IMG/VR virus record: IMGVR_UViG_3300037467_003075
Span: 1-64,000 of that record
From: a virus
Taxonomy: Duplodnaviria > Heunggongvirae > Uroviricota > Caudoviricetes
DNA length: 64,000 bases
Reading direction: 5' to 3' (one strand)
A model generated the notes under the pieces. The model was given only the letters and a program-made list of their open reading frames with translations, did no database searches and was not told where the DNA came from. Each line of letters starts with the position of its first letter. Position 1 is the stretch's first letter. Of the stretch, positions 6,291-45,273 are shown one piece after another. Both the position numbers and the translations under genes were made by a program.

Positions 6291-6320
6291 ATTAATCGTC
6301 CTCCTAAATAAAATGTATTT

Positions 6321-6509
6321 TTAGATTCTAAAGCTTTCCGCAATAGCTTTTGCTACTTCAATTTTCTTATCATCTGGAATCAAGTGACTGATTCGATGCC
6401 AGATATCGCTTGGTACGCTTGAAACACTGTGATAGTTCGCATCTTCAAGCATATTTCCAGTCTCTTCAATGATAGTCCATGCTTCTGCGCTTGCCATTGT
6501 GTGCGCCAT
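6321..6509 (-). CDS. hypothetical protein
   Basis: 62 aa ORF. Confidence 0.3.
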   Translation of the reverse strand: MAHTMASAEAWTIIEETGNMLEDANYHSVSSVPSDIWHRISHLIPDDKKIEVAKAIAESFRI

Positions 6510-27310: not shown

Positions 27311-27537
27311 GAATCAAATTCACTCCTTTGAGTATAAAATGTGACCATTTCCCTCTCGCCTTGTTCCAACATGCAATAATACGGCTCCCTGGTAATTTTG
27401 TAGATTTTCAGCATGCCTAACCATTTTACAGGTAAAACCATTCCCTCTTTCAGCGATTCAATTGCTCCTGCAACCTCTTCTGCATCACGAATCGGATATA
27501 CTTCTCCTTCCAACTCGATCATCGCAAGTTTCAACAC
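27283..27537 (-). CDS. small protein, tandem paralog family member
   Basis: GMVLPVKWLGMLKIYKITRE motif. Confidence 0.35.
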   Translation of the reverse strand: MLKLAMIELEGEVYPIRDAEEVAGAIESLKEGMVLPVKWLGMLKIYKITREPYYCMLEQGEREMVTFYTQRSEFDSWLESRKLA

Positions 27538-27551
27538 AAGCGGCCGCCTCC

Positions 27552-27803
27552 CTAAGCGTCTAATCTTCTACAGAAAATACAAACTTCTTTGCATATGCTG
27601 TTATCATCTTCTTCATATGGAGTGATAGTTGCACGAATGACTTCCAACATACCCAAGCGGTGGATTTTTAATTTGCTACCGACTTTGATCTGCATAACTT
27701 TTTTAAATATATCTTTATTCCATAAATCCTTAATAAAAAGCGTATCTTCTTCCACCATAATATATCCATAATAATATTCATTTTTCCATGTCATCACTTC
27801 CAC
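27552..27803 (-). CDS. small protein, tandem paralog family member
   Basis: GSKLKIHRLGMLEVIRATI motif. Confidence 0.35.
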   Translation of the reverse strand: MEVMTWKNEYYYGYIMVEEDTLFIKDLWNKDIFKKVMQIKVGSKLKIHRLGMLEVIRATITPYEEDDNSICKEVCIFCRRLDA

Positions 27804-28189
27804 GTCCTTTCAAAGTCCCGTTTAATAATAGATTCTATCCTCCTTTCTTCCGCGACTCGTCTGCTATCAGCAAAAGACGCGACAATTGACGTTGTAACAT
27901 TATCCCACCAATCTGATATCCAATTGCAGTCAATAACGTATTCAACGATATCGATAAAACCATCGCCAGTGTGATATTCTCTTGACAACATAACTCGCAG
28001 CCGCCCGATTCCCTTAATATTCAAGACGTCGCCAGCTTTCAACGAGGCAAGCTTGATTCGAAAATCCCACGGCTCATGAATTTTGTATTCTTTATGCTCT
28101 TCATCTTTGAATACAATAATAGACGCTACAACCGCATCGACACCCAAAATATCAGGCAGCCTAGACAAGATTAACACTTCCCTTAACAA
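27794..28189 (-). CDS. small protein, tandem paralog family member
   Basis: GDVLNIKGIGRLRVMLSREY motif; TTG start directly after an ATCTAAAATTATAT motif. Confidence 0.35.
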   Translation of the reverse strand: MLREVLILSRLPDILGVDAVVASIIVFKDEEHKEYKIHEPWDFRIKLASLKAGDVLNIKGIGRLRVMLSREYHTGDGFIDIVEYVIDCNWISDWWDNVTTSIVASFADSRRVAEERRIESIIKRDFERTWK

Positions 28190-28203
28190 TATAATTTTAG
28201 ATA

Positions 28204-28485
28204 TTAATCATGGGAAAGAAACGGAGTGAAGTTTAAGACATATCTTAAATTGCCTCTATAGCTGATTATGTGCCTATCTCTAAACTTAAGTATGCCGCCA
28301 CTCAAGCCTCTGATATCGGCATACTTAACAAATGACTTTTCAGCAAGCATGTGTGTTTTTTCAACTAATGCATCAGCTGCACCATTAGCATTATTCACTA
28401 CGTATTCTTTTTTGGTGCCTACAACTGCAATAACGACTGTTATCGTTTGTTCGTCCTGTTCGTTCTGGAAACTAATTTCGTCCAT
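28204..28485 (-). CDS. hypothetical protein (trimmed to the ATG overlapping the upstream stop)
   Basis: ATGGACGAAATTAG overlaps the stop of the HTH gene; the longer ORF-track start would overlap by 134 nt. Confidence 0.3.
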   Translation of the reverse strand: MDEISFQNEQDEQTITVVIAVVGTKKEYVVNNANGAADALVEKTHMLAEKSFVKYADIRGLSGGILKFRDRHIISYRGNLRYVLNFTPFLSHD

Positions 28486-28756
28486 CCAATCGTACAATAT
28501 TATCCCCCTCCCCAAAATACTTTCGCTTTGCTTCCTCGATAATCCGCGGCGGCAACTTATTAGCCAAGGTGAAAATTTGCTTCTCGTCAAGTTCAAACGT
28601 ATCAACTATTTTTTGAATCACTTCTTCGGATGGGATAATGTTTTTCTTCTCGATATCGGAATAATACTGTGGCGTGATGCCGACACGCCTTGCAGCCTCT
28701 GATTTTGTAAATTTCTTTGCTAACCTTGCAACCCTAATTTGTTCACCGAATGTCAT
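28472..28756 (-). CDS. XRE-family helix-turn-helix transcriptional regulator
   Basis: EQIRVARLAKKFTKSEAARRVGITPQYYSDIEKKNIIPS is a Cro/CI-type helix-turn-helix. Confidence 0.6.
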   Translation of the reverse strand: MTFGEQIRVARLAKKFTKSEAARRVGITPQYYSDIEKKNIIPSEEVIQKIVDTFELDEKQIFTLANKLPPRIIEEAKRKYFGEGDNIVRLDGRN

Positions 28757-28847
28757 ATCGGCACCCCCTTTTCTCTAATATTATACCCGATAATGATTAA
28801 GTTATCAACTTAAATTTTACCCACAAGAATTTTCCATGATGCATTCC

Positions 28848-29036
28848 TCAAGTAGTTAAGGCTTTTCTACGCCTAGATGCAAGCTGCCTCTTTTGTTCTT
28901 TTGTGAATCCCTTGCCAATATCTAGGGACAAATCGTAGCAATCGGTACACATGCCGTTAATTAATCCTGTTTTATCGACCAATCCACATGTACAACACCG
29001 CAGTTTTTCCTCCACATTTGCTGACAAATTAATCAT
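28848..29036 (-). CDS. small Cys-rich protein; its 5' end is a duplicate of the DUF932 start region
   Basis: MINLSANVEE parallels the (T)LPANVSEM start of DUF932; contains CCTCG...CTDCY. Confidence 0.3.
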   Translation of the reverse strand: MINLSANVEEKLRCCTCGLVDKTGLINGMCTDCYDLSLDIGKGFTKEQKRQLASRRRKALTT

Positions 29037-29077
29037 CCTCCTAATTAAAATATATTTTTAGATTTTTGCCACTTAGT

Positions 29078-29176
29078 TGGAGCAATAAGCGGAAACAGTT
29101 GGTCTGCTGTTTTAATCTAATTTTAGACCGATTCTACAAAATCCTTAATTAGATTTGCTTATTGCTCCAACTAAAG
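29078..29176. repeat. perfect 19-20 bp inverted repeat (CTTAGTTGGAGCAATAAGC ... GCTTATTGCTCCAACTAAG) enclosing nested hairpins and promoter-like motifs
   Basis: Read directly; lies between the GAT-II paralog 2 stop and the small gene at 28848-29036. Confidence 0.5.
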
Positions 29177-29201
29177 GGCAAAAGCCCTTTAGTATATTAT
29201 A

Positions 29202-30368
29202 TTAGACTGTAGGAAACAGCGCAGTGAGAGCTTGTTGGTGACATTTTGCGCAGTAGTAAGTGTTGTCGTTTGCTGCACCTTCATTGTAGGCAGCGTGCAC
29301 TTCATGCTCTTGCAACGCATCTTCACATTCGGCACAGAATACAATTTCGTTCTCTTCCTCGCCGTCTTCTTCATCGACGCCAGCGGCCTGTGCACTGGTA
29401 TAGATAATGACCTCGCCAGTGATAGGATCAAGTTCTCCTTCGATAATCATACCAATGGAATCGGATGCGGAGACACGAGTACTGTTTGTGCTATTCGTAC
29501 CCCTGGTATTCCAGTATTCATTATTAGTGTATGTTACCTTCGACACACTGGATGCAATGAGAATGCTCACAGGCTCACTAATCATGGTTTCGTAGGAATC
29601 GGCTGTCGAATCCAACATAACATAATTATTTGCTTTCAGCTCGTATTCCTTGAGCGTGAAAGTCTCACAGATATTAAACCGTTTGCCTACGCGGCGCAGC
29701 TTATTGAAGCTGTCAAGAATGAATTTCTTTTCAGAATTGAAGAACAGCACGCCAGCCTCTTCCCAATAGACAAAATCCATTGGACGATCTTGTTTCACAA
29801 TGTGAACAAGGTGAGGCTGTGCCTTGTGTGCAAAAGCCAAGGCGAACATGCCGCGCAGCTTTGTTTCCTCAAGCGCATTACGTAGTCCTTGATACGTAAT
29901 CTTGTCTTGATTATAATAATTGATTAACTGATAGATGATCTCGCTGTCAACTTCGGCAATACGTTCGAATCTTCCTTCGTATTGCTTAAATAGTTCATCG
30001 TCATTGGAGATTGTGCCGTTATGAACGCCGACAACGTTGCCGATGTCAAACGGATGGTTATTGTTATTATTGTCGGGCTTGCCTTTGGTGTAATACCGTG
30101 TATGAGAGATAATAGAGGCAGTATTATCATCGATATTCCTGATAATCGAATCATATTGCTCATCGAATGTCGTGAACATTTTTGCCTCCACAGCAGCCTT
30201 GTGCATCTCATAAGAAGAACCATCGCGAAGAAATGATACCAGGCCAGTAGCATGGTGCCCACGATCTTGCGTCTCGACCAAAATCTCATCGAACAAGTAA
30301 CGAATCGCGGCCCACATATTCTCCGTCCGCTCTTTTTTCAACAAAACAATCCCCGAAATACCACACAT
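29202..30368 (-). CDS. class-II glutamine amidotransferase (GAT-II) family protein, paralog 2, with C-terminal zinc ribbon
   Basis: Starts MCGISG; C-terminal CAECE...CAKCH; near-consensus promoter upstream at 30385-30420. Confidence 0.65.
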   Translation of the reverse strand: MCGISGIVLLKKERTENMWAAIRYLFDEILVETQDRGHHATGLVSFLRDGSSYEMHKAAVEAKMFTTFDEQYDSIIRNIDDNTASIISHTRYYTKGKPDNNNNNHPFDIGNVVGVHNGTISNDDELFKQYEGRFERIAEVDSEIIYQLINYYNQDKITYQGLRNALEETKLRGMFALAFAHKAQPHLVHIVKQDRPMDFVYWEEAGVLFFNSEKKFILDSFNKLRRVGKRFNICETFTLKEYELKANNYVMLDSTADSYETMISEPVSILIASSVSKVTYTNNEYWNTRGTNSTNSTRVSASDSIGMIIEGELDPITGEVIIYTSAQAAGVDEEDGEEENEIVFCAECEDALQEHEVHAAYNEGAANDNTYYCAKCHQQALTALFPTV

Positions 30369-30384
30369 TACAACATCATTCCCT

Positions 30385-30425
30385 TCGAAATTTTTAATCT
30401 GTTTTTATATTATAAATGCATTATA
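30385..30425 (-). promoter_or_regulatory. sigma-A-type promoter upstream of GAT-II paralog 2
   Basis: rc: cTTGACAcctggttataatgcattTATAATATaaaaac. Confidence 0.45.
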
Positions 30426-30502
30426 ACCAGGTGTCAAGTAGAAATATTGATTATTTTGGAGCAGCAACCAATATTAGATCACTGCTCCGTTATAATGCAA
30501 TA

Positions 30503-31606
30503 TTATACTGCAGCGGAGGAGCGGATAACCTGAATAGCTTGCAATTCATTTGCAGTAAACAGATCGTAATTGTCAAAAACGTCATTCTGCTGTTGAAGTA
30601 AAACTGCACACTCAAGCTTGAGCGTTTCGACAATAATCTCTTTGTTGGTATCGAATGTGCAGTTAGCGTCTAATAATTGACCGACAATAACCAGTATTTG
30701 TTCCATGGTCGCATGCTTTGCAAAATTAACCATATGTGTGACCAACTCGACATATGCCTCCACCATGTCAGCACTTTTCTGTGGGTAGAAATAACGGAAC
30801 TCGACCGTCTTTCTATATGTGGCATAAGCATCAAAATTAAGTCCCATATATCTGGTGTCTGAAAATTTTACGCTACCGATATTATACAAGTCCAGTCTTC
30901 CAATCGCACGAAGAACCTGGCTCCTATATTCGGAAAGTGGGCGGCAGTACTGACTCGTGAAACGATACTCTTCTGTTACCGAATAAATAAACGGTTCAAT
31001 TCCAACCGTCAATGCAAGCAACTTCTGAAAGTCGTGTACAGTATAATCTTCTACTTCAACATGAATATGTAGGCCAGCTGTATTGTCAACATGCCAGCCG
31101 TTGCCGTCAAGCCAGTCATACATTTTGTAAATCGGAAGTGTATTGGAAAGCGGTTCACATTTGGCCTCAATGCCGTAATCGTCCGCCTCAACGTACCCAG
31201 AGCCATCACACTGATAACATTCAATTGCATTTGTACCTTCGCAACGTGGACATTTCACATAAGAGCGACCATCGCAATGATCGCAGTTTATTTCACATTC
31301 ACCATCGCATTCGCAGCAAACGTTGCCGTCCTCATCTTTCCCGCTTCCGCTGCACTCGTCACAAGTTTCATATCCATTGTTGCAGTGTTCGCAGTGAATT
31401 TCCCCATCGCTGTCGCAGTCTGGGCATTCTACATGTCCACTACCTTGACAGCTGCCGCATTCGGTATCGCCATTGCGTAGGCTGCCATCGTCTTCAATAT
31501 CCCATTCGCACCCATCTATTACGCGTCCATAAACGCGGCTATTGACGTATCCCTCAAGCTCTACCCCGAATCGACGGGGAGTATTAATTCCATGGTTTTT
31601 GCACAT
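30503..31606 (-). CDS. GS-like amidoligase, paralog 4, with inserted Cys-rich (DnaJ-like CxxCxGxG) zinc-finger module
   Basis: FGVELEGY ... DDGSL ... about 110 aa of CxxC repeats (CGSCQGSGHVECPDCDSDG...) ... GLHIHVEV ... YMGLNFDAYATYRKTVEFRYF. Confidence 0.6.
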   Translation of the reverse strand: MCKNHGINTPRRFGVELEGYVNSRVYGRVIDGCEWDIEDDGSLRNGDTECGSCQGSGHVECPDCDSDGEIHCEHCNNGYETCDECSGSGKDEDGNVCCECDGECEINCDHCDGRSYVKCPRCEGTNAIECYQCDGSGYVEADDYGIEAKCEPLSNTLPIYKMYDWLDGNGWHVDNTAGLHIHVEVEDYTVHDFQKLLALTVGIEPFIYSVTEEYRFTSQYCRPLSEYRSQVLRAIGRLDLYNIGSVKFSDTRYMGLNFDAYATYRKTVEFRYFYPQKSADMVEAYVELVTHMVNFAKHATMEQILVIVGQLLDANCTFDTNKEIIVETLKLECAVLLQQQNDVFDNYDLFTANELQAIQVIRSSAAV

Positions 31607-31624
31607 TGCAATCCGCCTCCTTGA

Positions 31625-31672
31625 TTTATCTTATAGTTGTATTATAATTGATTCTAACTTAAGCTGTCAACT
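31625..31672 (-). promoter_or_regulatory. sigma-A-type promoter upstream of amidoligase paralog 4
   Basis: rc: gTTGACAgcttaagttagaatcaatTATAATAC. Confidence 0.45.
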
Positions 31673-31678
31673 GAAAAA

Positions 31679-32419
31679 TCACTTAATCTTTTCGTCTAAT
31701 ATTTGACGCAAATGCGTTTCCTTATCATCGTAATTGCCTGTCATGATCTGAAACTCAGGCACCATGCTGTCAACAAACCAATCAGCATTAGCAATATACT
31801 GATTCGCTTGCTTCACAGTGCCGTCAGGCAAATAAACATCGATCATCATGCGATTGTACATATTGTACTCAGGACTTGCATCAGGATTATACCCTTCTGT
31901 GTAATCGTAGGAATTTACGACAATATGCAGCGGAATTTCAAAATATGTGCCGTACACTTTGTCACTTTCGTTCTCCGTTAATTTCGTAACCGGGAATCCT
32001 CTACCACCAGTAGCGTACATTATTTGACTCTTAACATAGGCATTAGGGATAATGTTAACGCCACCTTCTGCCTCAATGTTCTCGACATATTTGAGAATGC
32101 CGTAAGTAAACATCGGCACCATTTCACTGTACGGAGCCATTGCCGCCCCCACGGTTTTAGAATCAAATAATTGATTCATAACATGCTCAGTAAACTGATA
32201 GTTATTGTTGCGAATCAGTAACTTAGCCAGGCTGTCGGCACCTTCATCATAAGCTATGTCTGTCATAACTCTCGACCAACAAGAGATACAAAGTCTTTTA
32301 CCGCTAAAATGTTCGCTACCGGGCAAAAAATAGACAGTGAATTTAGCGGAATTGTTATTGCACTTTTCACACATTACAACTCGATTTTTCAATTTTACTA
32401 TCTCCTTTGTTTTACGCAT
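31679..32419 (-). CDS. AIG2/GGCT-like (gamma-glutamyl cyclotransferase fold) protein, paralog 1, with N-terminal zinc ribbon
   Basis: FTYGILKY (YGSL-type motif) and C-terminal EGYNPDASPEYNMYNRMMIDVYLPDGT...A.QY, paralogous to 33360-34034. Confidence 0.5.
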   Translation of the reverse strand: MRKTKEIVKLKNRVVMCEKCNNNSAKFTVYFLPGSEHFSGKRLCISCWSRVMTDIAYDEGADSLAKLLIRNNNYQFTEHVMNQLFDSKTVGAAMAPYSEMVPMFTYGILKYVENIEAEGGVNIIPNAYVKSQIMYATGGRGFPVTKLTENESDKVYGTYFEIPLHIVVNSYDYTEGYNPDASPEYNMYNRMMIDVYLPDGTVKQANQYIANADWFVDSMVPEFQIMTGNYDDKETHLRQILDEKIK

Positions 32420-32786
32420 ATTGGAATGAGAAAGATTCTACAACTGTGTTCTCTTTGACGTATGGATTCGCCTTATCAAGCACTGTCACCAATACAATAT
32501 TATATTTTTCGATTGCAAATATTGTTGACAGGTTCTTATCCTTGTCGGATATTAGAATTTGTTTGCCGCTGTTATTGTACATTTCCAACTTCGTCCCTAA
32601 TCCCAAGATAGCACTGGCAATTTGATACTTGTTTAGTCTGCGTTGCTTAATACGTTTGATTGCGTGATTTGTAGCAATCAGTCGAAAAAATTTCCCACTG
32701 ACGAAAAAACCAGTAATTTCGTTTTCGTTTAACATTTCCATATACTTTGCACCAACCTTCTCTTTTTTTGATACAAGTATATGCAA
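32412..32786 (-). CDS. hypothetical protein
   Basis: 124 aa ORF. Confidence 0.35.
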   Translation of the reverse strand: MHILVSKKEKVGAKYMEMLNENEITGFFVSGKFFRLIATNHAIKRIKQRRLNKYQIASAILGLGTKLEMYNNSGKQILISDKDKNLSTIFAIEKYNIVLVTVLDKANPYVKENTVVESFSFQYA

Positions 32787-32803
32787 GTTTGCTATCTTTT
32801 ATG

Positions 32804-33007
32804 CTATTGTCCCATATTTCTTTTTTGTGCATCAAGAAAGCAACTAAAGCACTCTATAAATCCCATAGTAAAAATAGATGTTTCATCTTTATCTAGCGGC
32901 CTTCCTCTCCTTGCTTCAAAAACTTTGATTTTTTGTTCCACATTTGACAAAAGGCCAACATCGGCAAGCCTATCCCTCATTTCATCTGACATAATCACGC
33001 ATATCAC
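32804..33007 (-). CDS. hypothetical protein
   Basis: 67 aa ORF. Confidence 0.3.
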   Translation of the reverse strand: MICVIMSDEMRDRLADVGLLSNVEQKIKVFEARRGRPLDKDETSIFTMGFIECFSCFLDAQKRNMGQ

Positions 33008-33359
33008 CTTCCCTATTAAATATAATATTGTATGCTAGGCCAGCGTATGTGCCAGCCTAGCACGTTACTTCTAAAGTCCAATGTTTTACTCTCATAATTC
33101 AATTATAATATAATTATCTAAGTATCGTCAAGTAGTGGCATAAATATCTACCTCCATTATTGTCGATAGCAACTAATGTCTTTCACTATACTTATCGTCT
33201 AACATTTGACTATTTACTCAACAATCCCATTGTGGGAAAGGAGCCTGTGTGCAAATGTTACCAGCTACTACCTATTGAGCTGAAATGCACCCTTATTCAT
33301 CAAACTGACCGATAACCTCTAGTCTTTCACATTGTAGCTATCTAATATTATATACAGTT

Positions 33360-34034
33360 TTAAGCGCGATAACCGCTAAAAACGTATAAAACATAGTCGC
33401 CATGTGGAATAGCGCGGCAACCATTCTTTGCCCTGGTGTCCGCACAGAAGTATGCCCACGCTTCCACCTGTGTACCATCGGAGAGTGTAACATTAACCAG
33501 CTTGCGATTGTAATGGTTATATTTTGGATTTCGTTTTGGATTGTACCCCTCAAGGCTGTCAAGGTCAGCCAGCATACGGACATAGTCTTTTTCGTCAACC
33601 CACATAACTTCGCCATGCACTTTCTTGTCACCTTCGAACATGTAAGGCAAACTGTATCCCCTAACAAACAATTCACCCTGTATTGTTGCCGCCTCTTCGC
33701 GAATTGTTTTTTTATGGAAATAATATCTGTGGTTACTCATTCCTCTGCGTAAGGTGCCATAAACAAAGAACGGATATTGTTTTTCGATTCCAGTTTCGCC
33801 TTGAACACGAACCAAACTACCAATAGAATCCAAAATTAGATTGAAGTCATAGGACAACATCCAATATGTTCCGTCAAATAAGAAAGTCCAATCCTTGCCG
33901 TTGTCCGTTGCGGATTCATGTAATTCGCGGGTGTCGCGCCGCTTTCCTTCATATCCAACAACAATCTTATTGTTTCTCATGCCGTATATATTGATCTTAC
34001 CCCAATACGTTTGCTTGCTTGCTAAAACTGGCAT
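33360..34034 (-). CDS. AIG2/GGCT-like (gamma-glutamyl cyclotransferase) protein, paralog 2
   Basis: PFFVYGTLRRGMSNH (GGCT YGSL-type motif) ... LDSLEGYNPKRNPKYNHYNRKLVNVTLSDGTQVEAWAYF. Confidence 0.6.
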   Translation of the reverse strand: MPVLASKQTYWGKINIYGMRNNKIVVGYEGKRRDTRELHESATDNGKDWTFLFDGTYWMLSYDFNLILDSIGSLVRVQGETGIEKQYPFFVYGTLRRGMSNHRYYFHKKTIREEAATIQGELFVRGYSLPYMFEGDKKVHGEVMWVDEKDYVRMLADLDSLEGYNPKRNPKYNHYNRKLVNVTLSDGTQVEAWAYFCADTRAKNGCRAIPHGDYVLYVFSGYRA

Positions 34035-34055
34035 TGTAATTCCTCCGATATGATT

Positions 34056-34265
34056 TTAGATTTTTTTACGCTTTACGATATAACGGCTGCCGTCGCATGC
34101 GACCAGTTCCCATCCTTGCTCTCCGACTTTATTAAGGGCAGTCAAAAGATCGGGAACATCAAGACTAGTTTCCTTTTTAGCACACGATAGAATCCAATTC
34201 GTGGAATATAAACGACTCTCCATAACAAGATAAGCATATTCAAATTCGGGCAATTTAAATACCAC
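34056..34265 (-). CDS. hypothetical protein
   Basis: 69 aa ORF. Confidence 0.3.
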   Translation of the reverse strand: MVFKLPEFEYAYLVMESRLYSTNWILSCAKKETSLDVPDLLTALNKVGEQGWELVACDGSRYIVKRKKI

Positions 34266-34270
34266 CTAAC

Positions 34271-34537
34271 TTAGTATGTATGTAGCTTTCCACCAGTATA
34301 AAGCTTAGCCCAGTGATTCTTTCCGCGATTTCGTACAAGAGGAATAGTATTCTCGTCTTCTTTCTCTTCTTCTTGGCGGCGAGGAACATTCGGAGAAATG
34401 TCTAATATTTGACTGACACCCCGATATTCAGGGAAAGTCTCAAGCTTAGTACGCGCCTCCTTTTCACTACTGGCACGAAGAGCCAAATTAACCTCAACCC
34501 CATTCATAACAACATCAGCATACATTCTTTTCGCCAT
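34271..34537 (-). CDS. hypothetical protein (start trimmed to the ATG after RBS AAAGGAG)
   Basis: MAKRMYADVV... follows an RBS. Confidence 0.35.
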   Translation of the reverse strand: MAKRMYADVVMNGVEVNLALRASSEKEARTKLETFPEYRGVSQILDISPNVPRRQEEEKEDENTIPLVRNRGKNHWAKLYTGGKLHTY

Positions 34538-35016
34538 TATCGTCAACTCCTTTGAATTTAATATTTGATTTCTTACTTTTAGCCATATAAAGGGAATCAG
34601 TATCGACTCCCTCATCTTCCAATGTCAATCCATATTTCCAGCTGGTGGCGACAACAATAGCAAAAATCAAAAGGGAAAGTAGTAACATGTCACGCCTCCC
34701 TCGAAACAAGCATTTTCACTCTTGTTCTGCTATTAAGAGAATCACCGACAACGCCAAGTATTTGAATTACCGTCACTTCCTCATCCTCAGGTCTACACTT
34801 GGAGCCTGGCTCTACAACTTGATAAGGATGTAACGTCACATAGACAATATCGGTCACTTTGTTATCCCTCCATTATGGTCAAAAATTTGACTTTGACCTT
34901 TTCAGCTTTCCGATACGTTATAATATTCGATTGCAACACCATCTTTCGGCCGCAGTCCTCAACGAACACAAACCATTTGCGCCAACGTTTCCCTAAATCA
35001 ATACCGATGTGGATTT

Positions 35017-35262
35017 TCATACTTCACTCACTGGATAAGAGATATCTGCATAATGCTCGGATAGAACCTCATGCAACAATTCAGATTCATGCGAAGAATA
35101 TAATGTTATACGCTCTTGTTTCTCTTTGTCAGTTAGAGTAGAATTTTTGATTCTCTCCTTAACGTTTGCCAACGCATCCAGCGCAGTATCTTTGCTGCCG
35201 AACAAAATATTGATTGCGTCATTCCAGCTCATAGACTGTTCTTGCCGCTTCCTCTTGCCCAT
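35017..35262 (-). CDS. hypothetical protein
   Basis: 81 aa ORF. Confidence 0.3.
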   Translation of the reverse strand: MGKRKRQEQSMSWNDAINILFGSKDTALDALANVKERIKNSTLTDKEKQERITLYSSHESELLHEVLSEHYADISYPVSEV

Positions 35263-35564
35263 TATCTCACCGTCCCTAAAGTCTTATATTCTACTACATG
35301 CCGAAAGAGCATCATTGAAATTGTATTCTTACTTAATTCTTTATTGTGTATTTCGACATAGCTTGGAATCTGCAACAACGCTTGAACGCGCATCGAATTT
35401 TCTATATTCTTATCGTCCTCCAAGTGCCAAGCAACCCAACCAGGCGGCAAAAAGCCACCGACAAACGAAACAAGTTCCTCAAACTCAGCATCAGAATACT
35501 CATGTGTGAATCTCACAAGAGAACCTAATTCATTAAGACGATTCCCAATGATGTGCCTTGCCAT
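35262..35564 (-). CDS. hypothetical protein
   Basis: 100 aa ORF preceded by an ATCTAAAATTATAT motif and RBS. Confidence 0.35.
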   Translation of the reverse strand: MARHIIGNRLNELGSLVRFTHEYSDAEFEELVSFVGGFLPPGWVAWHLEDDKNIENSMRVQALLQIPSYVEIHNKELSKNTISMMLFRHVVEYKTLGTVR

Positions 35565-35579
35565 TGTTATCCCTCCAAT

Positions 35580-35660
35580 ATAATTTTAGATTTCAACTTA
35601 TGTAGCCATCCAAGCTATTGAATATTAAACTCAATAGCTTGATTTTAACACATAAGCTTT
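35580..35660 (-). promoter_or_regulatory. ATCTAAAATTATAT promoter-like motif plus upstream hairpin with AATATT loop
   Basis: rc: caagctattgaGTTTAATATtcaatagcttg ... ATCTAAAATTATATTGGAGGGataacaATG. Confidence 0.45.
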
Positions 35661-35671
35661 AAGCTTGCAAC

Positions 35672-35947
35672 TTAATTTTGCCGTCCAATATTATAGCTTA
35701 CTTGTGTCCCCCAAAATTCACCTTTGTCATTGAAGCAAGCAACGATGTTATTTACTTCCTTCGGCAACGTTGCAAGTTCTGCCTTGATATCTCGCAGTAA
35801 ATGGCGGCGCAGTCTACCAGTAACCGTTGTCCCATCCTCCAAATGGTAGGTAACAGGAACAAAGTAGCGATGCGCACCGATGCCATTGTTCTTCTCGACT
35901 TTCGCACCCTCGACAGGTGCTATTTTTACGATCTTAATCTCTTTCAT
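35672..35947 (-). CDS. hypothetical protein
   Basis: 91 aa ORF. Confidence 0.35.
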   Translation of the reverse strand: MKEIKIVKIAPVEGAKVEKNNGIGAHRYFVPVTYHLEDGTTVTGRLRRHLLRDIKAELATLPKEVNNIVACFNDKGEFWGTQVSYNIGRQN

Positions 35948-36475
35948 GTTCGTCCCTCCTTAAAGTATATTATTTGATTTAAACTATGCCTCATCCAATT
36001 CCACATCATCCCACCAAGCAGTAGGATTCGTTTTAGGGTTACGGTCATATTTGTTCAATTCATTACAACGTGCTTCTGCTAATTCCTGTGTGCTCCACAC
36101 GGAATCAAAGTTTCGTGCATCCCGGTTTTGTTCGTCTTTCATGACAACATATAGCTTCATTGTGACTAAAGCCTCCTTTTTGTATATTATTTGACGCTAA
36201 CTTTCCACATTGCTACCTTTTTGCGTAGCTTAGCAGCCATGCGATGCTTACCATTCGTTTCCGCTTCCACCAGCTTGGATAAGAGACTATAATAGCTATC
36301 AGATACCATTCAGTGCACCCCTTTCATGAAGTCGCTAACCGGGGAAAGAATAGTGTATAAAATTATATACAAGCCAACAATAGCAACCGTACCGACAACT
36401 GAGATAGCCAACAGGGAAAGCCACACTTGCCAGCGCGGCCTCCCCCATGTGATGCCGATTGATTGAAAGAATCTC

Positions 36476-37114
36476 TTATCCATGCTGTGCCTCCGTTACC
36501 TTTGTCATGTTCACAACTGCAACTTTCGGAATCCAACCTGACCAGGTGAATGAGGCCATTTGACGCTTCATTTCTTCATATCGCTCCTGCAGCTCTTCCT
36601 CCGAATTTAGCGGATTGATATGGAAGTGCTGTCCGCATATCGGCCCTAATCCATACAGGAGGCTGACAGGATGCGTCAATTCGTGACCGCAATGCAAGCA
36701 ATGCGACGATGGAGCCAAAAAGCCTTTCAACTCGACCAGGTAGGCTTTTGTAGTCTCTTTTTTGATTATACCACGCATTTCACGGCAAGGGATAGGATTA
36801 TTTTCCTGTTTCGTCAACCATTTTTTCACCCTAATTTGATATTCCTGCCGCGGTACCGTTTCACGCACAGGATTGATTGCAGGGGCCGGAGACTCAACTT
36901 TGGAGAACCTGGAACGCACTGCTGGCAACTTAATTTCCCAATCAGCAAACACTTTTTCTACTGCCGTGTTATCGTCAACGTGTGCCATGAAGAACGTTGA
37001 ACCAGCTGCATCCTTGCCAATTAATTCCATCATGATAGTGCGATTAAATTCGGGCGAACGATAGTTAAAAAACTGACCAGTAAACTGACCTCTCGAAACC
37101 GTTGCCGTTGCCAT
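36476..37114 (-). CDS. hypothetical protein with Cys cluster
   Basis: 212 aa; CLHCGHE...ICGQ; preceded by the motif and RBS GGGAGG. Confidence 0.4.
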   Translation of the reverse strand: MATATVSRGQFTGQFFNYRSPEFNRTIMMELIGKDAAGSTFFMAHVDDNTAVEKVFADWEIKLPAVRSRFSKVESPAPAINPVRETVPRQEYQIRVKKWLTKQENNPIPCREMRGIIKKETTKAYLVELKGFLAPSSHCLHCGHELTHPVSLLYGLGPICGQHFHINPLNSEEELQERYEEMKRQMASFTWSGWIPKVAVVNMTKVTEAQHG

Positions 37115-37127
37115 TTTGTTATTCCTC

Positions 37128-37200
37128 CCTAGAATATAATTTTAGATTGAATTGCTTAATTGGGAGCAGGAATCTAATATTAAACTCCTGCTCTTTTGCT
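37128..37200 (-). promoter_or_regulatory. ATCTAAAATTATAT promoter-like motif plus hairpin (stem GAGCAGGA/TCCTGCTC, loop containing AATATTAGAT)
   Basis: Read directly; same loop and a different stem from the copy at 37590-37660. Confidence 0.45.
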
Positions 37201-37207
37201 AAGCGAT

Positions 37208-37552
37208 TCAAGCTTGTTTTTGAGGCCAGTATTTCTGCGGCAGTATGATCGTTTTGAATGACCATCCTGCGCCATAGGCTGCGCGATAGTTGGAAAGCAA
37301 GTGCACCTTGTCGCTTCTGTCCGTTGCATAGTCGCAGTGTTCATATTCTCTATCACCTTGCATACGGCAAAGAATCTGAAATTGATAACCAGTTTCCGGT
37401 GAATACGCTTTAGGCAATGTCATTTTGTTTTCCTCCTTTTTATGCCCGCTCAAATTAAGCTTTTCAGCGAGTCGATTCATCATTTCTTGCCTCCATTCCG
37501 ACGAGTCTTGCGCGGCCGAATGTACAACAAAGGCAATTCTTCCATTTCCCAA
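37208..37552 (-). CDS. hypothetical protein (start uncertain)
   Basis: No in-frame ATG near the ORF start; an ATG at 37578 is out of frame, suggesting a frameshift or non-ATG start. Confidence 0.3.
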   Translation of the reverse strand: MGNGRIAFVVHSAAQDSSEWRQEMMNRLAEKLNLSGHKKEENKMTLPKAYSPETGYQFQILCRMQGDREYEHCDYATDRSDKVHLLSNYRAAYGAGWSFKTIILPQKYWPQKQA

Positions 37553-37584
37553 AAATTCGTGTAGCCAAGTTTTAGCATTGTTAT

Positions 37585-37662
37585 TCCTCCGATCTAATTT
37601 TAGATTGTTTCGTACAATCCATTGAATGAGACGATGAATCTAATATTCGACCATCGTCTCAC
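37585..37662 (-). promoter_or_regulatory. ATCTAAAATTAGAT promoter-like motif plus hairpin (stem GAGACGATG/CATCGTCTC, loop GTCGAATATTAGATT)
   Basis: Read directly. Confidence 0.45.
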
Positions 37663-37678
37663 CCTAGCATTTTACGAA

Positions 37679-39121
37679 TCAATCACCCATGTACACCAGG
37701 CGGCCCGCCATAAACTCAAGATCGACATTTTCACGCTTGAACATTTGATACAGGCTGACCGCTTGTTTTTGCTGCACCCCAAGGAAAGCAGCGATGTTCA
37801 AATGAAAGTCGTTCAAGTTTCCAGCCATCGGCACCGCGAAACGCTTGATTGCTTCGATATAGCGGCCGCGCAGCTCATCATCGCGCACCCTGATGCGAGT
37901 CGAAAAGTGTGATTCCATTTTCGTCATGTCGTAATTTTGCTCTATTTTGTTTTCCTCCAAAAACTGAGGAATCGGGCAGTCAATCAGTTTGTCAAGCACA
38001 TCCAGCGCATCCAGCGAACCAGAAAGCTTGAAATATTTGAAAAGATAGGACTTCATTAGCGTATAATTTTCGACGATATACGTCTTATCCACTCGTTTCC
38101 AATTCACCGAATGATTCTGAGCCTGATTTTGACTGGCCTCGATTTCAGCTTTCGACGGCATGAAGTAGAAGCTATTCCGCGCCATATCGTAGGCAAACAA
38201 TGCGATTGCGCGATTCAAGGCGAACCAAGCGGACATCATGCTAGCGGAAAAATTGCAGTCCATCATGCGGTTTTCGAAGTGGAATGCATCAGTAAAGCGT
38301 GTATCCCACTCGTATTCCATGTCGCGGCCGTCATATCGATTCCAGAAGCCATTGCCACAAGGAATGCGGAAACACGATTCGCGCTGCATACTGACCATAT
38401 AGCCGTCAGTCTTTTTCGTGTGACCATTTTCTTCTGTACCGACAGCCGTTCTAATATTATACTCTACGGCATTGTACCAAGAGTAAAGCCTATCGCCATG
38501 CATCATATCATAACCATTCCCTGCTGTCCTACGTGCACCGCGAATGTTTGTCATTGACACCCATTTCAGCACTGGGAGGAAACGAACCAAGAACATGGCA
38601 ACGTTGCGGTACATTTTCATGACTGGCAGCTTGATTGCCACCACAGAACCATCCTCACCACCAAAATCCGCATAGGCGACAGCAGTGTGCACATGTGTGC
38701 TGGCACCGTAGTTATGGCGAACGCCGCCCGACGCTTCCAGGTAAATCGGCATGATACGATCAAACTCATCTTTAATGCCGTTGAAATCGTAAGCATGGAA
38801 CGGACTAGTTGAAGTTTCCGTTGAGTGCCAGTCACGATTTTCAACGTAGCAGCCGCCGCCGTCAGTATGAGAATCGTCATTCCAGCCGTTGCCGTCGTTT
38901 ATTGCTTTCGAAGAGGCGCAGCCAGCGCCGATTGTATTCAGACGACGAAGCGTTGTGCCTGGTCCATTTGCAGTAGGTGCTTCAAATTCGCACCCTTGAC
39001 GGATAAAACGATTGATTGCCGACAGCGACTGCTGCTTCCCGTTCATTTGCTCCATAAACTCTTTACTGTTCACCGTTACCACTTTCCTTCCGTTTTGGTT
39101 TGTTTTCCCTTCTGAATACAA
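37679..39121 (-). CDS. GS-like amidoligase-related protein, paralog 5 (divergent; start uncertain)
   Basis: GCEFEAP ... STHVHTA ... SWYNAVEYNIR echo the paralog motifs. A TTGACA-N17-TAATAT promoter sits at 39122-39150. Confidence 0.45.
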   Translation of the reverse strand: MYSEGKTNQNGRKVVTVNSKEFMEQMNGKQQSLSAINRFIRQGCEFEAPTANGPGTTLRRLNTIGAGCASSKAINDGNGWNDDSHTDGGGCYVENRDWHSTETSTSPFHAYDFNGIKDEFDRIMPIYLEASGGVRHNYGASTHVHTAVAYADFGGEDGSVVAIKLPVMKMYRNVAMFLVRFLPVLKWVSMTNIRGARRTAGNGYDMMHGDRLYSWYNAVEYNIRTAVGTEENGHTKKTDGYMVSMQRESCFRIPCGNGFWNRYDGRDMEYEWDTRFTDAFHFENRMMDCNFSASMMSAWFALNRAIALFAYDMARNSFYFMPSKAEIEASQNQAQNHSVNWKRVDKTYIVENYTLMKSYLFKYFKLSGSLDALDVLDKLIDCPIPQFLEENKIEQNYDMTKMESHFSTRIRVRDDELRGRYIEAIKRFAVPMAGNLNDFHLNIAAFLGVQQKQAVSLYQMFKRENVDLEFMAGRLVYMGD

Positions 39122-39152
39122 TATTAAACTTAAAGCTTAAAACTGTCAAGCG
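39122..39152 (-). promoter_or_regulatory. sigma-A-type promoter TTGACA-N17-TAATAT upstream of amidoligase paralog 5
   Basis: rc: gcTTGACAgttttaagctttaagttTAATATtgtattcag. Confidence 0.45.
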
Positions 39153-39227
39153 TGGGGAAAAGAAAATCTAAAAATAAATTCTTGGAGTCGTTCCCCCTTG
39201 TTCATCACCCAATAGTCGAATATTAGA

Positions 39228-39575
39228 TCAATTCGCGAATTGCAGCATCCCGTAGTGTAAACGGAAACGATAGGAAGAACCAACCAAGGAAAGCAGCGCG
39301 TTCATTGCACTTCGATGTGTTCCCGTATTTCCCCAATATTGAAGGATAGGCACCGAGCGATAGCGGCCGATAGTCAGCAGCCGTCGATCATTGACATAAA
39401 GACTTATTTCAAACAGGCTTACGACAATTTTATACGTATTGACCTTGCAGCGCACTTTCGCTTCGCCGCGATGCTCTTCCGATTGCTCAGCAAGCTCGAC
39501 AGCCTTTTTGTAAATCGATTCGATCATTTTCATTGTCATATTCCTCCCGAAATATAATTTTAGACTATTGGGCAA
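39228..39575 (-). CDS. hypothetical protein
   Basis: 115 aa ORF preceded by the motif and RBS. Confidence 0.35.
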   Translation of the reverse strand: MPNSLKLYFGRNMTMKMIESIYKKAVELAEQSEEHRGEAKVRCKVNTYKIVVSLFEISLYVNDRRLLTIGRYRSVPILQYWGNTGTHRSAMNALLSLVGSSYRFRLHYGMLQFAN

Positions 39576-39650
39576 TCAACAAGGGAAACGACATGTCGTT
39601 TCCCCAATTATACGCGAATGATCGATCAAAATATTAGATTTCGATTGCAA
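39545..39650 (-). promoter_or_regulatory. AGTCTAAAATTATAT motif plus palindromic hairpin GGGAAACGACATGTCGTTTCCC and upstream ATCTAATATTT
   Basis: Read directly. Confidence 0.4.
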
Positions 39651-40071
39651 ATTCGTATTGCTTGTAGCCTTCCTCCTTGTCGCCATAGGAGATGAAGACC
39701 AACTTTCCGTCTACCCATTCAGCACCGTAAAGGTCTTCCATCACGCGCTGCAGCTGCGAATCGTCTTTCAATTCATCCAGCTTTTTAGCGATTTTCTCTT
39801 TCATCGCATGGGCTTTCGCTGCCGTTTCGAAGGCAAAAAAGTCGCCGATTGTAGCAACTTGGTTGCGTTTCGGATTAAACATGCGAATTGTCGATTTACG
39901 CACATCGTCTTCCTTTTCGCTGGTAACGAACATGTTATAGCGATTCGGCGCACCGAGCAGCCGCGTTCCCCAATACCGCATGGTATCTTTCGAAAACCAG
40001 TGCATACCAGCTTCCTCGTTAAGCTTCTTCATTTGAACAAAAGAAATCGGTTTAGCAGTCAGAATGTTCAT
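39634..40071 (-). CDS. hypothetical protein
   Basis: 145 aa; first gene of the minus block downstream of the control region; motif and RBS GGAGGG upstream. Confidence 0.4.
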   Translation of the reverse strand: MNILTAKPISFVQMKKLNEEAGMHWFSKDTMRYWGTRLLGAPNRYNMFVTSEKEDDVRKSTIRMFNPKRNQVATIGDFFAFETAAKAHAMKEKIAKKLDELKDDSQLQRVMEDLYGAEWVDGKLVFISYGDKEEGYKQYEFAIEI

Positions 40072-40084
40072 ATTCGTTATCCCT

Positions 40085-40112
40085 CCAAGGATATAATTTT
40101 AGATCATTCGCG
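40085..40112 (-). promoter_or_regulatory. ATCTAAAATTATAT promoter-like motif ahead of RBS GGAGGG of gene 39634-40071
   Basis: rc: gaatgATCTAAAATTATATccttGGAGGGataacgaatATG. Confidence 0.4.
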
Positions 40113-41080
40113 CATAATTCGGGAAACGGCCGCGGAAAAGGAAAGGAGAAAAGATTCGGTTTTGTTGGCCTATCATATAAGGCACAGTCCGACAGCGACA
40201 ATTAACTGTCACTGGATAGCTCTACCGAAAACGTTTTAATCCTTTTCTCGCAAACAACACCAGCTAGTGCCGTTCATGCCGTTGGTCAACTACTCACCCC
40301 GATACATTCGCACACTAGACTGGAATCATTCGCTTTCCCTATTCCGTTCGTTCCCTACTATTGATACGACAAGCACACAAGGTTAACCGAGGAGAAGTGC
40401 AGGCCAGAAGAGCAAAAAAGCTTCTAACCTGGATAAGCGCGGGCACCTACCTGCAGGAACACATTCCTGCGACCATGAAAACCGATGCGCTGGGACTTTA
40501 CGCGATGGTCAATCGCAACCTTGATCTTACCTTGCATGCTTGCCGTACTCTTGACTAGCCTGGCGGAAAAAATCCCAAAAACGTGTGAAGCCTCACCAGT
40601 ACTGCGCTAGTCTAATATTTGATTTAAATTATCGCCCTTTTTCGTGAACATCGACAGCACTACCCGCTCAACCCTTTCGGATTAATTCTCGTGCCGTGTG
40701 GATGGCCTAGTTTTAAGCAGCATCGCTTGAATCACCTTGCCTACGTCTATACTCACAACCCGCAAGCCCTGCAACCCTTTGACATTGAAAGCTTTCGCGC
40801 AATAAACCCCTTACCCTGGGCAGTGTTTCGGAAACACACCCCCTCTATTCAGCCTGGCACCTTTCGGCACCGCCTCCCTTTTCCGTTTCGTTTCCTGCAC
40901 CAGTTTCCTGCCCGCCTACTCACTTGGCGATGTGTCCAAGCTTTCGAATACCAGATATTCCGCTCATGCATTCCGTTTCCCTACTCACAAGAGGCTGACG
41001 CTACTAACCGCTGCTCCACTCTTCCCCGTTCACCCTTCACCGGAAAAAGTCGCGTTTTCAATCAAATATTAAATTGTCAA
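40110..41080 (-). ncRNA. candidate large structured ncRNA in a GC-rich, ORF-poor island (class unknown; strand tentative)
   Basis: About 50% GC against about 38% background. The only ORFs have non-protein-like composition. The minus-strand transcript would be purine-rich with many GAAA-containing hairpins (AATCC-GAAA-GGGTT, GTGCC-GAAA-GGTGC and others). A TTGACA -35 box sits at about 41075. Confidence 0.25.
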
Positions 41081-41867
41081 GGAACTTCATCGGCCCTTTA
41101 AAGCGTGGTTACGGCGACCGCTTTCCGTGTATGCTCCAAGCGTTTCGCACCCTGTGAAAGCAGTCCAGCAAGCTCGCAGCTGGTGATTCGTTGGGATAAT
41201 GAAGCTTTCAGCTTTCAGCTGGTAACTGAAAATTGTACCAGACGAAGCTGTCTTGCCGTGTTGCCTTTCTTTGATGCAAATTAACCTTACCATACCCGCC
41301 AACGTGCTGTCAACTAGAAATTTTTGCGCGGCGGAAAAGCCAGGAAAAACTGTGTCCCATTCTCTAAAAAGCTAGGAGACTGATATAGGGACTGATACCG
41401 CTGGATGGATTGTTGTGTTTCAGTGAGGATGTGACAGTACACCAGTCGCCATCTGTCAGCTACCCCCTTGCTGCCTATCCAATGCTGACGGCCCGTTTCT
41501 GTTTTCCGCTCTTCACGGTATGGCGTCCCCCATTCGCCTTGCAATGGGGATTGTTTGCCCAGGTCGGTCGTCCGTTTCGCTCTTGGATTGCCTTGCCGTC
41601 TTACAAGTCAACACTATACACTAGGGAATAAACGTTGTAAAGACTTTTTTTTGAGCAAATACAATCAAATATTGTACCGTATCCTCCTGCTGCTCTCATC
41701 TGCTCTCGTTTACTCCCTTATACTCTTATTCTTGCCGATATCGTCTAATATTATACGCTGCCCATGCAAAATATTTTTCTCTTCATTATAAGGGAAAAAA
41801 GAAAGTTGCCCGGTATCAAGTCAGTAGAGGAGAGAACACCAGGGAATGATCGATATGTTATGGAAGC

Positions 41868-41962
41868 ATAAATGTGAAGGATAAAAATGAAGGATATGAA
41901 CGATAAAAGCGAAGGATATGAAGGATAAAAAGCGAAGGATATGAAGCGAAGGATGGAAGCAT
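41868..41962. repeat. iteron-like degenerate tandem repeats (GAAGGATATGAA units with GATAAAAGC spacers)
   Basis: GAAGGATAAAAAT GAAGGATATGAACGATAAAAGC GAAGGATATGAAGGATAAAAAGC GAAGGATATGAAGC GAAGGATGGAAGC, read directly. Confidence 0.5.
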
Positions 41963-43006: not shown

Positions 43007-43034
43007 TAAATGTTAATAAGGGGAGAGAATTAGA

Positions 43035-44030: not shown

Positions 44031-44039
44031 TAACAATAG

Positions 44040-45272: not shown

Positions 45273-45273
45273 A

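Follow-up and report, generated by a model that had tools for sequence, protein, structure and literature searches.

The DNA stretch analysed here (the window: 64,000 nt, positions 1 to 64,000 of the IMG/VR virus record IMGVR_UViG_3300037467_003075) is part of a conjugative plasmid of Paenibacillus type and ~160 kb, whose block of small genes for establishment and anti-defence carries, at one gene junction after another, a repeated AT-rich motif of 14 nt whose majority form is ATCTAAAATTATAT and which is called M in the following. M and the elements around it make up a real, conserved and repeated regulatory cassette, found on what gene content indicates to be Paenibacillus conjugative plasmids. 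M is not a sigma-A promoter, and the stem-loops that precede a subset of its copies are selected on the mRNA-sense strand. The explanation that we place first, tentatively and by analogy with the start-associated sequences (SAS) and extended start-associated sequences (ESAS) of mycobacteriophages, is that M constitutes the 5' part of a junction and translation-initiation cassette working at the mRNA level, accompanied by insulating or processing hairpins.

A search of the window for ATCTAAAATYAKAT with at most one mismatch returned 14 matches against 0.34 expected (100 shuffles, never more than 2), so that the repeated motif seen before minus-strand genes in the original prediction is real. 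The accompanying check in related genomes (contigs designated by L numbers) showed it to be conserved and enriched in L001, L012, L013 and L014: L001 holds 17 matches of the ATCTAAAATYAKAT type versus 1.5 expected, and the other three, in which a 480-aa protein of the block is 53-57% identical, contain many more copies, placed before unrelated genes. Across the elements that keep M, proteins are 53-62% identical. Within the window the motif is confined to one block, being absent from the plus-strand block at 42.4-51 kb and nearly absent from 2.5-27 kb. The copies next to a Shine-Dalgarno (SD) sequence or the end of an open reading frame (ORF) are the following.

40091..40104, minus strand: M copy ATCTAAAATTATAT, 4 nt upstream of GGAGGG, before the first gene of the block (39634-40071, DUF7447)
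39552..39565, minus strand: M copy GTCTAAAATTATAT, upstream of the SD of gene 39228-39533
37592..37605, minus strand: M copy ATCTAAAATTAGAT, a 6+6 inverted repeat, 1 nt upstream of GGAGG, with the ATG at 37578
37134..37147, minus strand: M copy ATCTAAAATTATAT, upstream of the SD of the DUF6011 gene 36476-37114
35578..35591, minus strand: M copy ATCTAAAATTATAT, 1 nt upstream of GGAGGGATAACAATG, gene 35262-35564
34048..34061, minus strand: short-form M copy ATCTAAAATCATAT, 1 nt upstream of the SD of the GGACT gene 33360-34034
29050..29063, minus strand: M variant ATCTAAAAATATAT, upstream of the SD of a 59-aa ORF (28848-29027, TTG start)
28189..28202, minus strand: short-form M copy ATCTAAAATTATAT, abutting the stop of the upstream ORF, with the gene 27794 to ~28168 downstream
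6313..6326, minus strand: weaker M variant ATCTAAAAATACAT, upstream of the DUF932 gene 5358-6290

All the strong copies lie on the minus strand in the sense of the gene and are followed within 1-8 nt by an SD of the GGAGG type, as is the variant at 6313-6326; an extra copy at 29115-29128 (GTCTAAAATTAGAT) has no adjoining SD. Three of the gene starts first proposed (39575, 29036 and 28189) were simply those of the longest ORFs, the likely real ones being 39533, 29027 (TTG) and ~28168 (TTG).

When 19 copies from the window and two relatives were aligned, the sequence upstream of M carried ~0 information, as against 0.7-1.5 bits at every one of the 14 positions, and conservation ran on 3' of the motif with the consensus aAATCTAAAATTATAT-t-GGAGGGATAACA-ATG. 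A stringent count over six related sequences yielded 32 SD-linked copies, 31 of them in gene-sense orientation, with an M-to-SD distance of 0-8 nt and a mode of 1 nt (15 of 32). There are 20 copies of the asymmetric form (C3,T12) to 3 of its reverse-complement equivalent (A3,G12), and ATAAC occurs 3' of the SD in 11 of the 32 copies versus 17 of 190 control SD sites. The full cassette consists, in this order, of a stop codon, M, 0-8 nt, GGAGG, an A-rich spacer (often GATAACA) and the start codon, with M at about -30 to -16 relative to the latter; M and the SD are predicted by partition-function folds to be mostly unpaired. The upstream stop codon is found inside M, abutting M, or brought adjacent to it by a stem-loop. 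In most short-form copies the upstream ORF ends at the TAA of M (positions 4-6) or 3-4 nt before the motif, and therefore M, SD and spacer represent the entire intergenic region; at 34048..34061, for example, the internal TAA (34056-34058) is the stop codon of the preceding ORF.

The motif had been described as promoter-like, which in the usual sense of the word is not supported. Among the 19 aligned copies neither a -35 hexamer nor a TG-extended -10 was found at any fixed distance, the SD follows M almost immediately, and a promoter scan scored two of nine M copies, each at 9/12, with neighbouring genes reaching 11-12/12 for sigma-A. Moreover, in the relatives M usually contains or abuts the upstream stop codon, so there is no room for a transcription-unit boundary. 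A -10-like hexamer, TAAAAT, does occupy positions 4-9 of M, which is weak evidence in AT-rich sequence. An antisense promoter was rejected, as the reverse complement of M has TATAAT but no -35 at a usable distance. It was likewise considered whether M pairs with 16S rRNA near its 3' end, outside the anti-SD; compared by eye with the B. subtilis sequence, the majority form has no consistent complementarity, and the idea was discarded.

The amidoligase and GATase genes of the same region have, as proposed, their own near-consensus sigma-A promoters (31670-31641 and 30437-30409, both 12/12), and M does mark a separate class of genes, apart from the many window genes with canonical sigma-A promoters. 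Strong sigma-A promoters form a second repeat family, TTGACA-17-TATAAT with a downstream TATAATATAAGTATAA that is also conserved, which ranges over 2500-33200 and 42300-54700 (examples at 22380-22440, 16170-16235, 13125-13190, 11650-11715, 7295-7350, 6515-6580 and 42331-42355); canonical promoters with TATAATATAAGTATAA serve the operons of 42.4-51 kb and 2.5-27 kb, from which M is absent or nearly so. The conserved TATAATATAAGTATAA suggests a shared operator or leader.

Intercistronic stem-loops

Three hairpins with different, still complementary stems had been noted upstream of M copies, and they were found at about the positions given. They correspond to the apical parts of longer stem-loops of 60-80 nt, with AATATTAGAT in the loop of two and AATATTCAAT in that of the third. 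Together with two other structured regions they are listed below.

37627-37661, minus strand: stem GAGACGATG/CATCGTCTC, inner stem of a long stem-loop
37606..37681, minus strand: long stem-loop with tip GTCGAATATTAGAT that begins with the TGA stop (37679-37681) of the 480-aa gene and reaches the base adjoining M
37164-37193, minus strand: stem GAGCAGGA/TCCTGCTC, inner stem of a long stem-loop
37148..37210, minus strand: long stem-loop with tip GTTTAATATTAGAT, from the TGA stop (37208-37210) to M
35611-35641, minus strand: stem CAAGCTATTGA/TCAATAGCTTG, inner stem of a long stem-loop
35595..35658, minus strand: long stem-loop with tip GTTTAATATTCAAT, between the stop 35672-35674 and M
39568..39636, minus strand: intercistronic structure from the stop 39634-39636 to M, with a terminator-like hairpin at 39582-39605
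29064..29201, minus strand: structured intergenic region with a 16-bp outer stem AGTTGGAGCAATAAGC/GCTTATTGCTCCAACT, z-score -6.7

The structure at 39568..39636 carries a direct copy of ATCTAATATT at 39630-39639, and the outer stem at 29064..29201 encloses an inverted pair of M-like sites that includes GTCTAAAATTAGAT (29115-29128). RNA folds of four structured junctions gave z-scores of -4.2 to -6.7 (-5.7 to -6.5 for 37606..37681). In the seven long-form copies (window 37605, 37147 and 35591; L012 11375 and 14104; L013 4370 and 6353), with z-scores of -4.9 to -7.3, the stem-loop invariably begins in the interval from 3 nt before to 13 nt after the upstream stop, and 0-3 nt separate its end from M; the stop codon itself is paired in most, and the stop-to-M distances are 60, 67, 68, 68, 69, 73 and 80 nt. 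The stem sequences are unrelated in every copy, including the positional orthologues after the 480-aa gene, and all are still paired. The conserved part is the tip, which is a palindromic version of M, perfect in L013 (ATCTAATATTAGAT) and degenerate in the window (GTTTAATATTAGAT, GTCGAATATTAGAT). Variable but paired stems with z-scores of -5 to -7 bear out the view that these are functional nucleic-acid structures. As alignment of the seven units with MAFFT and RNAalifold left the variable stems unaligned and recovered the apical helix only, we relied on per-copy folds, shuffles and the comparison of strands.

The latter showed the sense RNA to be more stable than the antisense in 14 of 16 units. 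G.U pairs, which make up ~15% of the pairs, number 70 in sense against 14 in antisense folds; long-form units have 2-8 each in sense and mostly 0-1 in antisense (3 and 0 in 37606..37681, 6 and 0 in 35595..35658). The preferential folding of the sense strand and the G.U bias indicate that the structure is selected in the transcript, and not as a double-stranded palindrome or in the template strand. The original prediction had offered a functional RNA stem-loop or a paired operator for a dimeric regulator; the first is supported and the second does not account for the strand-specific hairpins, an operator being still a live rival for M itself.

The element is conjugative, and the hairpin and M might act in the DNA strand transferred during conjugation. 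In Frpo-type promoters a hairpin of the transferred (template) strand recreates -35 and -10 elements within its stem. A comparable promoter, or a priming signal for the complementary strand, would suit a block that converges on the relaxase gene as in pLS20 (PMC8708921), and if the transferred strand is the coding strand here as it is in pLS20 (PMC8708921), it would be the one on which the hairpins fold best. At the ArdA junction of L001 and L014, furthermore, M pairs with a perfect 11-12 nt inverted copy (single-stranded DNA folds, z -6.4 and -6.8). On the other hand, no stem contains a -35/-10 pair, the complement of M stays single-stranded in DNA folds of the window copies, most M copies lack a hairpin altogether, the share of G.U pairs fits RNA better than DNA, and the strand bias speaks against the Frpo kind. 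We regard a role in the transferred strand as the least probable of the explanations considered.

The hairpins also bear on the possibility, close to that of the original prediction, that M is a special promoter without a -35, with TAAAAT as its core, recognised by a sigma factor, RNA polymerase or activator that the element encodes, in which case transcripts would start just before the SD and the hairpins would end the preceding unit. M genes of the window mostly follow ~100-nt hairpin-bearing gaps, where other blocks have sigma-A promoters, and a lineage-variable, AT-rich motif of 14 nt containing TAAAAT resembles phage-specific promoters, of which the T4 late promoter TATAAATA is an example. 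The stem-loop promoters of T4-type phages (promoter early stem-loops, PeSLs) would provide a precedent (PMC4122927). However, beyond the lack of -35 or TG elements, the SD lies 0-1 nt after M, and a start 6-8 nt past TAAAAT would put it at the very 5' end of the mRNA; L013 has M at more than half of its junctions, often with the upstream stop inside it and without a terminator; and neither the 64 kb window nor the adjoining 10 kb upstream revealed a gene for an RNA polymerase or a sigma factor. As to termination, the three hairpins cited above are absent from the terminator scan (GC-rich hairpin plus U-tract) and have no U-tracts; the scan passes only 39605-39582 (minus), the sole M-adjacent hairpin among its matches, and 29170-29193 (plus, antisense to these genes). 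In several hairpins the basal helix takes in the first bases of M, so that M would be transcribed together with its hairpin. A promoter of this kind ranks third in our estimate, with a small probability.

Two direct relationships between tip and motif were tried and abandoned: the loop lengths make a simultaneous tip-M pseudoknot implausible, and M did not pair with the tip when the 16 nt that follow the stop codon were masked as if covered by a terminating ribosome. L012 11375 has a compensating change between tip and M, which the other copies do not have. A search of Rfam 15 found no match at E <= 1 in 27500-42600, only tRNAs reaching the gathering threshold. The ardA junction (L001 11390-11535, L014 11381-11500) follows a different design, for there M itself pairs with the inverted copy mentioned above and the SD is predicted to be sequestered by a stretch of CTTCCGCCGC, M and SD of other junctions being mostly open.

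Possible readers of the motif

M is nearly palindromic, and its palindromic form ATCTAAWWTTAGAT (P) occurs 11 times in the window with at most one mismatch, versus 0.19 expected. The sites that bear on a DNA-binding reader are these.

Window 2290-2303 (relaxase gene), 17676-17689, 20199-20212 and 33828-33841: P sites in coding regions without a nearby SD
L013 8121 and 10651, L012 15952, L015 3347 and 3805: P sites in coding regions, likewise without a nearby SD
28472..28756, minus strand: XRE-family helix-turn-helix (HTH) gene, candidate trans-factor, with a TTGATA-17-TATAAT promoter at 28780-28808
30455..30490, minus strand: hairpin GGAGCAG...CTGCTCC with ATCTAATATT in the loop, just upstream of the GATase sigma-A promoter

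The main rival of an mRNA-level cassette, second in our ranking and with a real if minor share of the probability, holds that M and P are DNA operators of a plasmid-encoded repressor, the XRE HTH protein being the candidate. Junction sites would then work as roadblocks, in the manner of cluster A mycobacteriophage stoperators, and promoter sites as classical operators, and the block would be silent in the established plasmid and briefly expressed after transfer into a repressor-free recipient. Symmetry favours this explanation (the copy at 37592-37605 reads ATCTAA-AA-TTAGAT, and L013 has perfect ATCTAATATTAGAT copies), as do the palindromes found away from any SD inside relaxase, GGACT, glycosyltransferase and type IV secretion system (T4SS) genes, the site over the -10 of the XRE gene itself and others that adjoin sigma-A promoters. 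The block has few sigma-A promoters of its own, and lineage-specific variants of the motif would be in keeping with a regulator that co-evolves. For p576 it is documented that a repressor controls the establishment genes (PMC6294495), and orientation-specific junction sites are documented for phage L5, as cited in PMC3203893. A symmetric dimer, however, does not predict the 31:1 orientation, the 20:3 asymmetric excess or the fixed SD distance, and leaves the strand bias of the hairpins unexplained. The spacing between the centres of tip site and M, 38-55 bp with four of nine at 42-43, is not cleanly helically phased either.

Further evidence comes from more distant lineages. In L004, a GC-richer relative with 40% identity, the motif is AAAATTCAAC, present in ~9 copies, each followed by a linker of 3-4 nt (tcta, gct, caga, cata, taca, tgaa) and AGGAG, and in L005 and L006 (38% identity) TTAAATTATA directly abuts AGGAG. 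A linker of fixed length and variable sequence suggests that motif and SD are read together, and both this and the non-palindromic form of the L004 motif speak against an operator. The change of the motif between lineages points to a co-evolving factor rather than to the ribosome alone. In the same way, the conservation of M at all 14 positions, combined with its lineage specificity, suggests that the factor is encoded by the element.

Cassettes have apparently moved between genes. The initiation regions at 6240-6345 and 28980-29085 (minus) are nearly identical over ~50 nt, first four codons included, in spite of belonging to the unrelated genes of DUF932 (6290) and of the 59-aa cysteine-rich ORF (29027), which indicates that whole cassettes are copied. 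It is conceivable, if very improbable in our estimate, that the cassettes serve chiefly as recombination linkers, which by copying or conversion from junction to junction would shuffle accessory genes, with no regulatory role of their own. The shared region of 6290 and 29027 and the very different gene content between anchor genes of the relatives would be accounted for. The conservation of M at every position across elements with proteins as divergent as those given above would not, and fixed SD spacing and compensated hairpins indicate functional selection; moreover, Pfam scans of the block's small proteins revealed no recombinase in the window. Integron attC sites, of which each cassette has one and which go with an integrase, have an RYYYAAC/GTTRRRY core at the hairpin base and a tip that varies. 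Such an identity was rejected for M, where the tip is the conserved part and the bases vary, most junctions are without a hairpin and no recombinase was found in the window.

In the mRNA-level explanation, which we rank first with rather less than even confidence, the cassette would give strong and uniform initiation, or termination-reinitiation coupling, to establishment and anti-defence genes. An element-encoded, sequence-specific factor would read M and control the gene set as one regulon. The hairpins would hold the initiation region free of upstream RNA and probably serve also as RNase III-type processing or 3'-stabilising elements, for which hairpins between cistrons of T7 and SP82 early mRNAs are precedents. 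Both forms would lead to the same geometry: the stop touches M in the short form, and in the long form the hairpin would loop out the spacer so that the stop again adjoins M. This explains orientation, spacing, stop-codon geometry and hairpins.

It does not explain the copies within coding regions, and several findings weigh on the other side. The abundance of P is one. The palindromic site of the GGACT gene is kept in three elements (window, L012, L013), a perfect palindromic copy lies inside the glycosyltransferase gene of L013, and the T4SS operon has three such sites. An M/P-like site, GTATAATATTAGAG, coincides in part with the -10 of the XRE gene promoter, as would be expected for autoregulation, and sites similar to ATCTAAWWTTAGAT flank the GATase promoter. 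Recognition of double-stranded DNA would account for the palindromes of coding regions and the XRE promoter more naturally. The hairpin tip is conserved in sequence, which pure RNA structure would not require, and the identity of SD and spacer could stem from cassette copying or gene conversion instead of translational selection. Pfam scans of the block's small proteins disclosed no RNA-binding protein or sigma factor, and no RNA-binding regulator was found in the window. Lastly, all the functional steps just outlined are ones that we infer from sequence. An mRNA-level cassette and an operator set may also both be true, with one factor or two.

A bolder version, to which we give only a modest chance, is that M and the hairpins serve as the signal in cis for a post-transcriptional regulon, encoded by the plasmid, through which all the establishment and anti-defence genes are turned on and off after conjugative entry. 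Its reader would be a dedicated RNA-binding factor or a termination-reinitiation mechanism, working through one 14-nt element per junction. Establishment genes need fast and brief expression for the plasmid to survive the first minutes in a new cell, and only two schemes for their control are understood, the single-strand promoters of Gram-negative systems and the repressor circuit of p576, with EGeRS1 of the pLS20 family unexplained. A post-transcriptional regulon would be a third type of control, beside single-strand promoters and repressor/operator circuits, and would offer a first mechanistic handle on SAS-type motifs. With dozens of genes of ~160 kb Paenibacillus plasmids marked by one short junction element and compensated mRNA hairpins, M would be a compact, easily mutated test case for the co-ordination of a whole accessory-gene regulon. 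Should it turn out to be merely an operator set or an optimised ribosome-binding cassette, the result would be a useful annotation and no surprise.

The source element and its relatives

The window was taken from a virus record, and phage identity was at first suggested by tRNAs, a thymidine kinase and distant homologues in Bacillus phages G and SP-10; the phage-like look is due to a cluster of seventeen tRNA genes (57599-62618, minus), which also contains a gene for a 125-aa protein with an RF-1 domain (ArfB-like, 61251-61628), and to distant homologues of the ATPase in Bacillus phages. The phage context was not borne out, since genes for a T4SS, a coupling protein and a relaxase lie directly upstream and identify a conjugative plasmid. 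An identical relaxase protein is encoded on contig L015, which reaches 10 kb past the window start; its positions 1-10000, directly upstream of window position 1, hold TrbL/VirB6-like, PrgI-like and VirB4-like genes, together with those for an 806-aa coupling protein, of which the first ORF of the window is the C-terminal portion, and an actin-like segregation protein. In the window Pfam recognised a Replic_Relax protein and a fragment of a coupling protein, both at the left end, as well as DUF932, amidoligase, GATase, GGACT, DUF6011, DUF4326 with NADAR and XRE-family HTH, families typical for conjugative elements and conflict systems. About 90 small minus-strand genes form an array from 40 kb down to 2.5 kb that converges on the relaxase gene, just as the establishment genes of the pLS20 family form an array converging on conjugation genes (PMC8708921).

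The relatives were found through the 480-aa protein. They are contigs of 153-178 kb, including isolates of Paenibacillus xylanexedens and P. illinoisensis, in which ParA, DnaD-like genes and ArdA adjoin the homologous block, and the family represents previously undescribed large Paenibacillus conjugative plasmids of ~160 kb. Gene content between conserved anchor genes diverges strongly among them. Near-identity DNA searches gave no match for 33-41 kb in phages or for 1-12 kb and 33-43 kb in plasmids, tblastn of the 480-aa protein gave none in phage and plasmid collections, and scans of genome contigs with this protein and with its alignment confirmed no relatives. Viral contigs yielded one distant relative, L006, when scanned with the protein alignment, and single matches only, probably due to chance, when scanned with the cassette pattern.

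Some neighbouring features deserve mention. A non-coding stretch of 1.9-2.7 kb occupies the same place in L001, L003, L005, L012 and L014 as 40105-42400 does here, where it comprises iterons (41860-41960) and ~1.5 kb of GC-rich sequence, purine-rich on the sense strand, that ends at the first M copy and is devoid of ORFs and of Rfam matches; a replication origin is one possibility, an extended structured leader like EGeRS1 another. Beside the M copy at the block head every relative has a pyrimidine-rich element, CTTTTCCGCCG, in two arrangements (window 40130-40150; L001 ~9625; L003 ~9235 and ~9640; L014 ~9880; L013 ~2685). A gene for a DUF4258 (predicted toxin-like) protein at 32412-32786 is preceded by a 570-nt gap (32787-33359) with divergent promoter-like sites and without a clear ORF, and in one relative only, L003, an HNH endonuclease gene (19319-19834) lies between the amidoligase and GATase genes.

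Comparison with known systems

Early mRNAs of T7 and of the Bacillus phage SP82 have intercistronic RNase III hairpins, and a 5'-proximal SD can act as a stabiliser. Those hairpins resemble the long form in being long and imperfect, with conserved features, and in extending from the stop codon to the next ribosome-binding site (RBS); they differ in that the phage systems have no M-like element, and cleavage is putative in the present case. Stoperators recall M in consisting of many sites of 13-14 bp in short intergenic gaps, with one orientation relative to transcription and with related copies at promoters. Those of cluster A mycobacteriophages (L5 gp71 sites) are cited in PMC3203893. M differs as a near-palindrome with a fixed relation to the SD, for which repressor binding is only a candidate role.

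In T4-type phages, PeSLs combine a stem-loop with a conserved short element and flank small ORFans in hyperplastic regions whose gene content varies between relatives (PMC2839356, PMC4122927). They contain, however, a full sigma-70 early promoter with a -35, unlike M, which has none and abuts the SD. The pLS20 family comes closer in its biology, because EGeRS1 and EGeRS2 are repeated regulatory sequences directly upstream of the RBS of establishment operons on a Firmicute conjugative plasmid, with the same gene layout converging on the conjugation operon, and EGeRS1, which lacks a constitutive promoter, abounds in inverted repeats (PMC8708921, PMC6294495). Nevertheless, EGeRS1 measures 420-750 bp and is GC-rich, and EGeRS2 is a sigma-A promoter with TTATCCC operators, whereas the M cassette has ~30 nt in its short and 90-120 nt in its long form and no sequence similarity to either.

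The closest analogue of the M cassette is provided by the SAS/ESAS of cluster K mycobacteriophages. SAS is a short asymmetric motif of unknown function with 11-19 copies, nearly all in one orientation and a few bases from a start codon in the non-structural part of the genome; the upstream stop is sometimes inside the motif, the consensus differs between sub-lineages, and just upstream of about half of the copies lies an inverted repeat, imperfect and with a spacer that varies (ESAS; PMC3203893). M is equally a one-orientation repeat immediately before gene starts (31 of 32 in sense, SD 0-8 nt downstream), and an upstream inverted repeat is present in a subset, namely the seven long-form copies and the ArdA-junction type. 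The two part ways in that SAS contains the SD (GGGATAGGAGCCC), with M being AT-rich and 5' of a separate GGAGG, and in that ESAS repeats do not support RNA pairing, while the stems of the M hairpins are compensated and strand-biased. One is hosted by actinobacteriophages and the other by a Firmicute conjugative plasmid, so that M would stand as an independent Firmicute counterpart of the still unexplained start-associated sequences.

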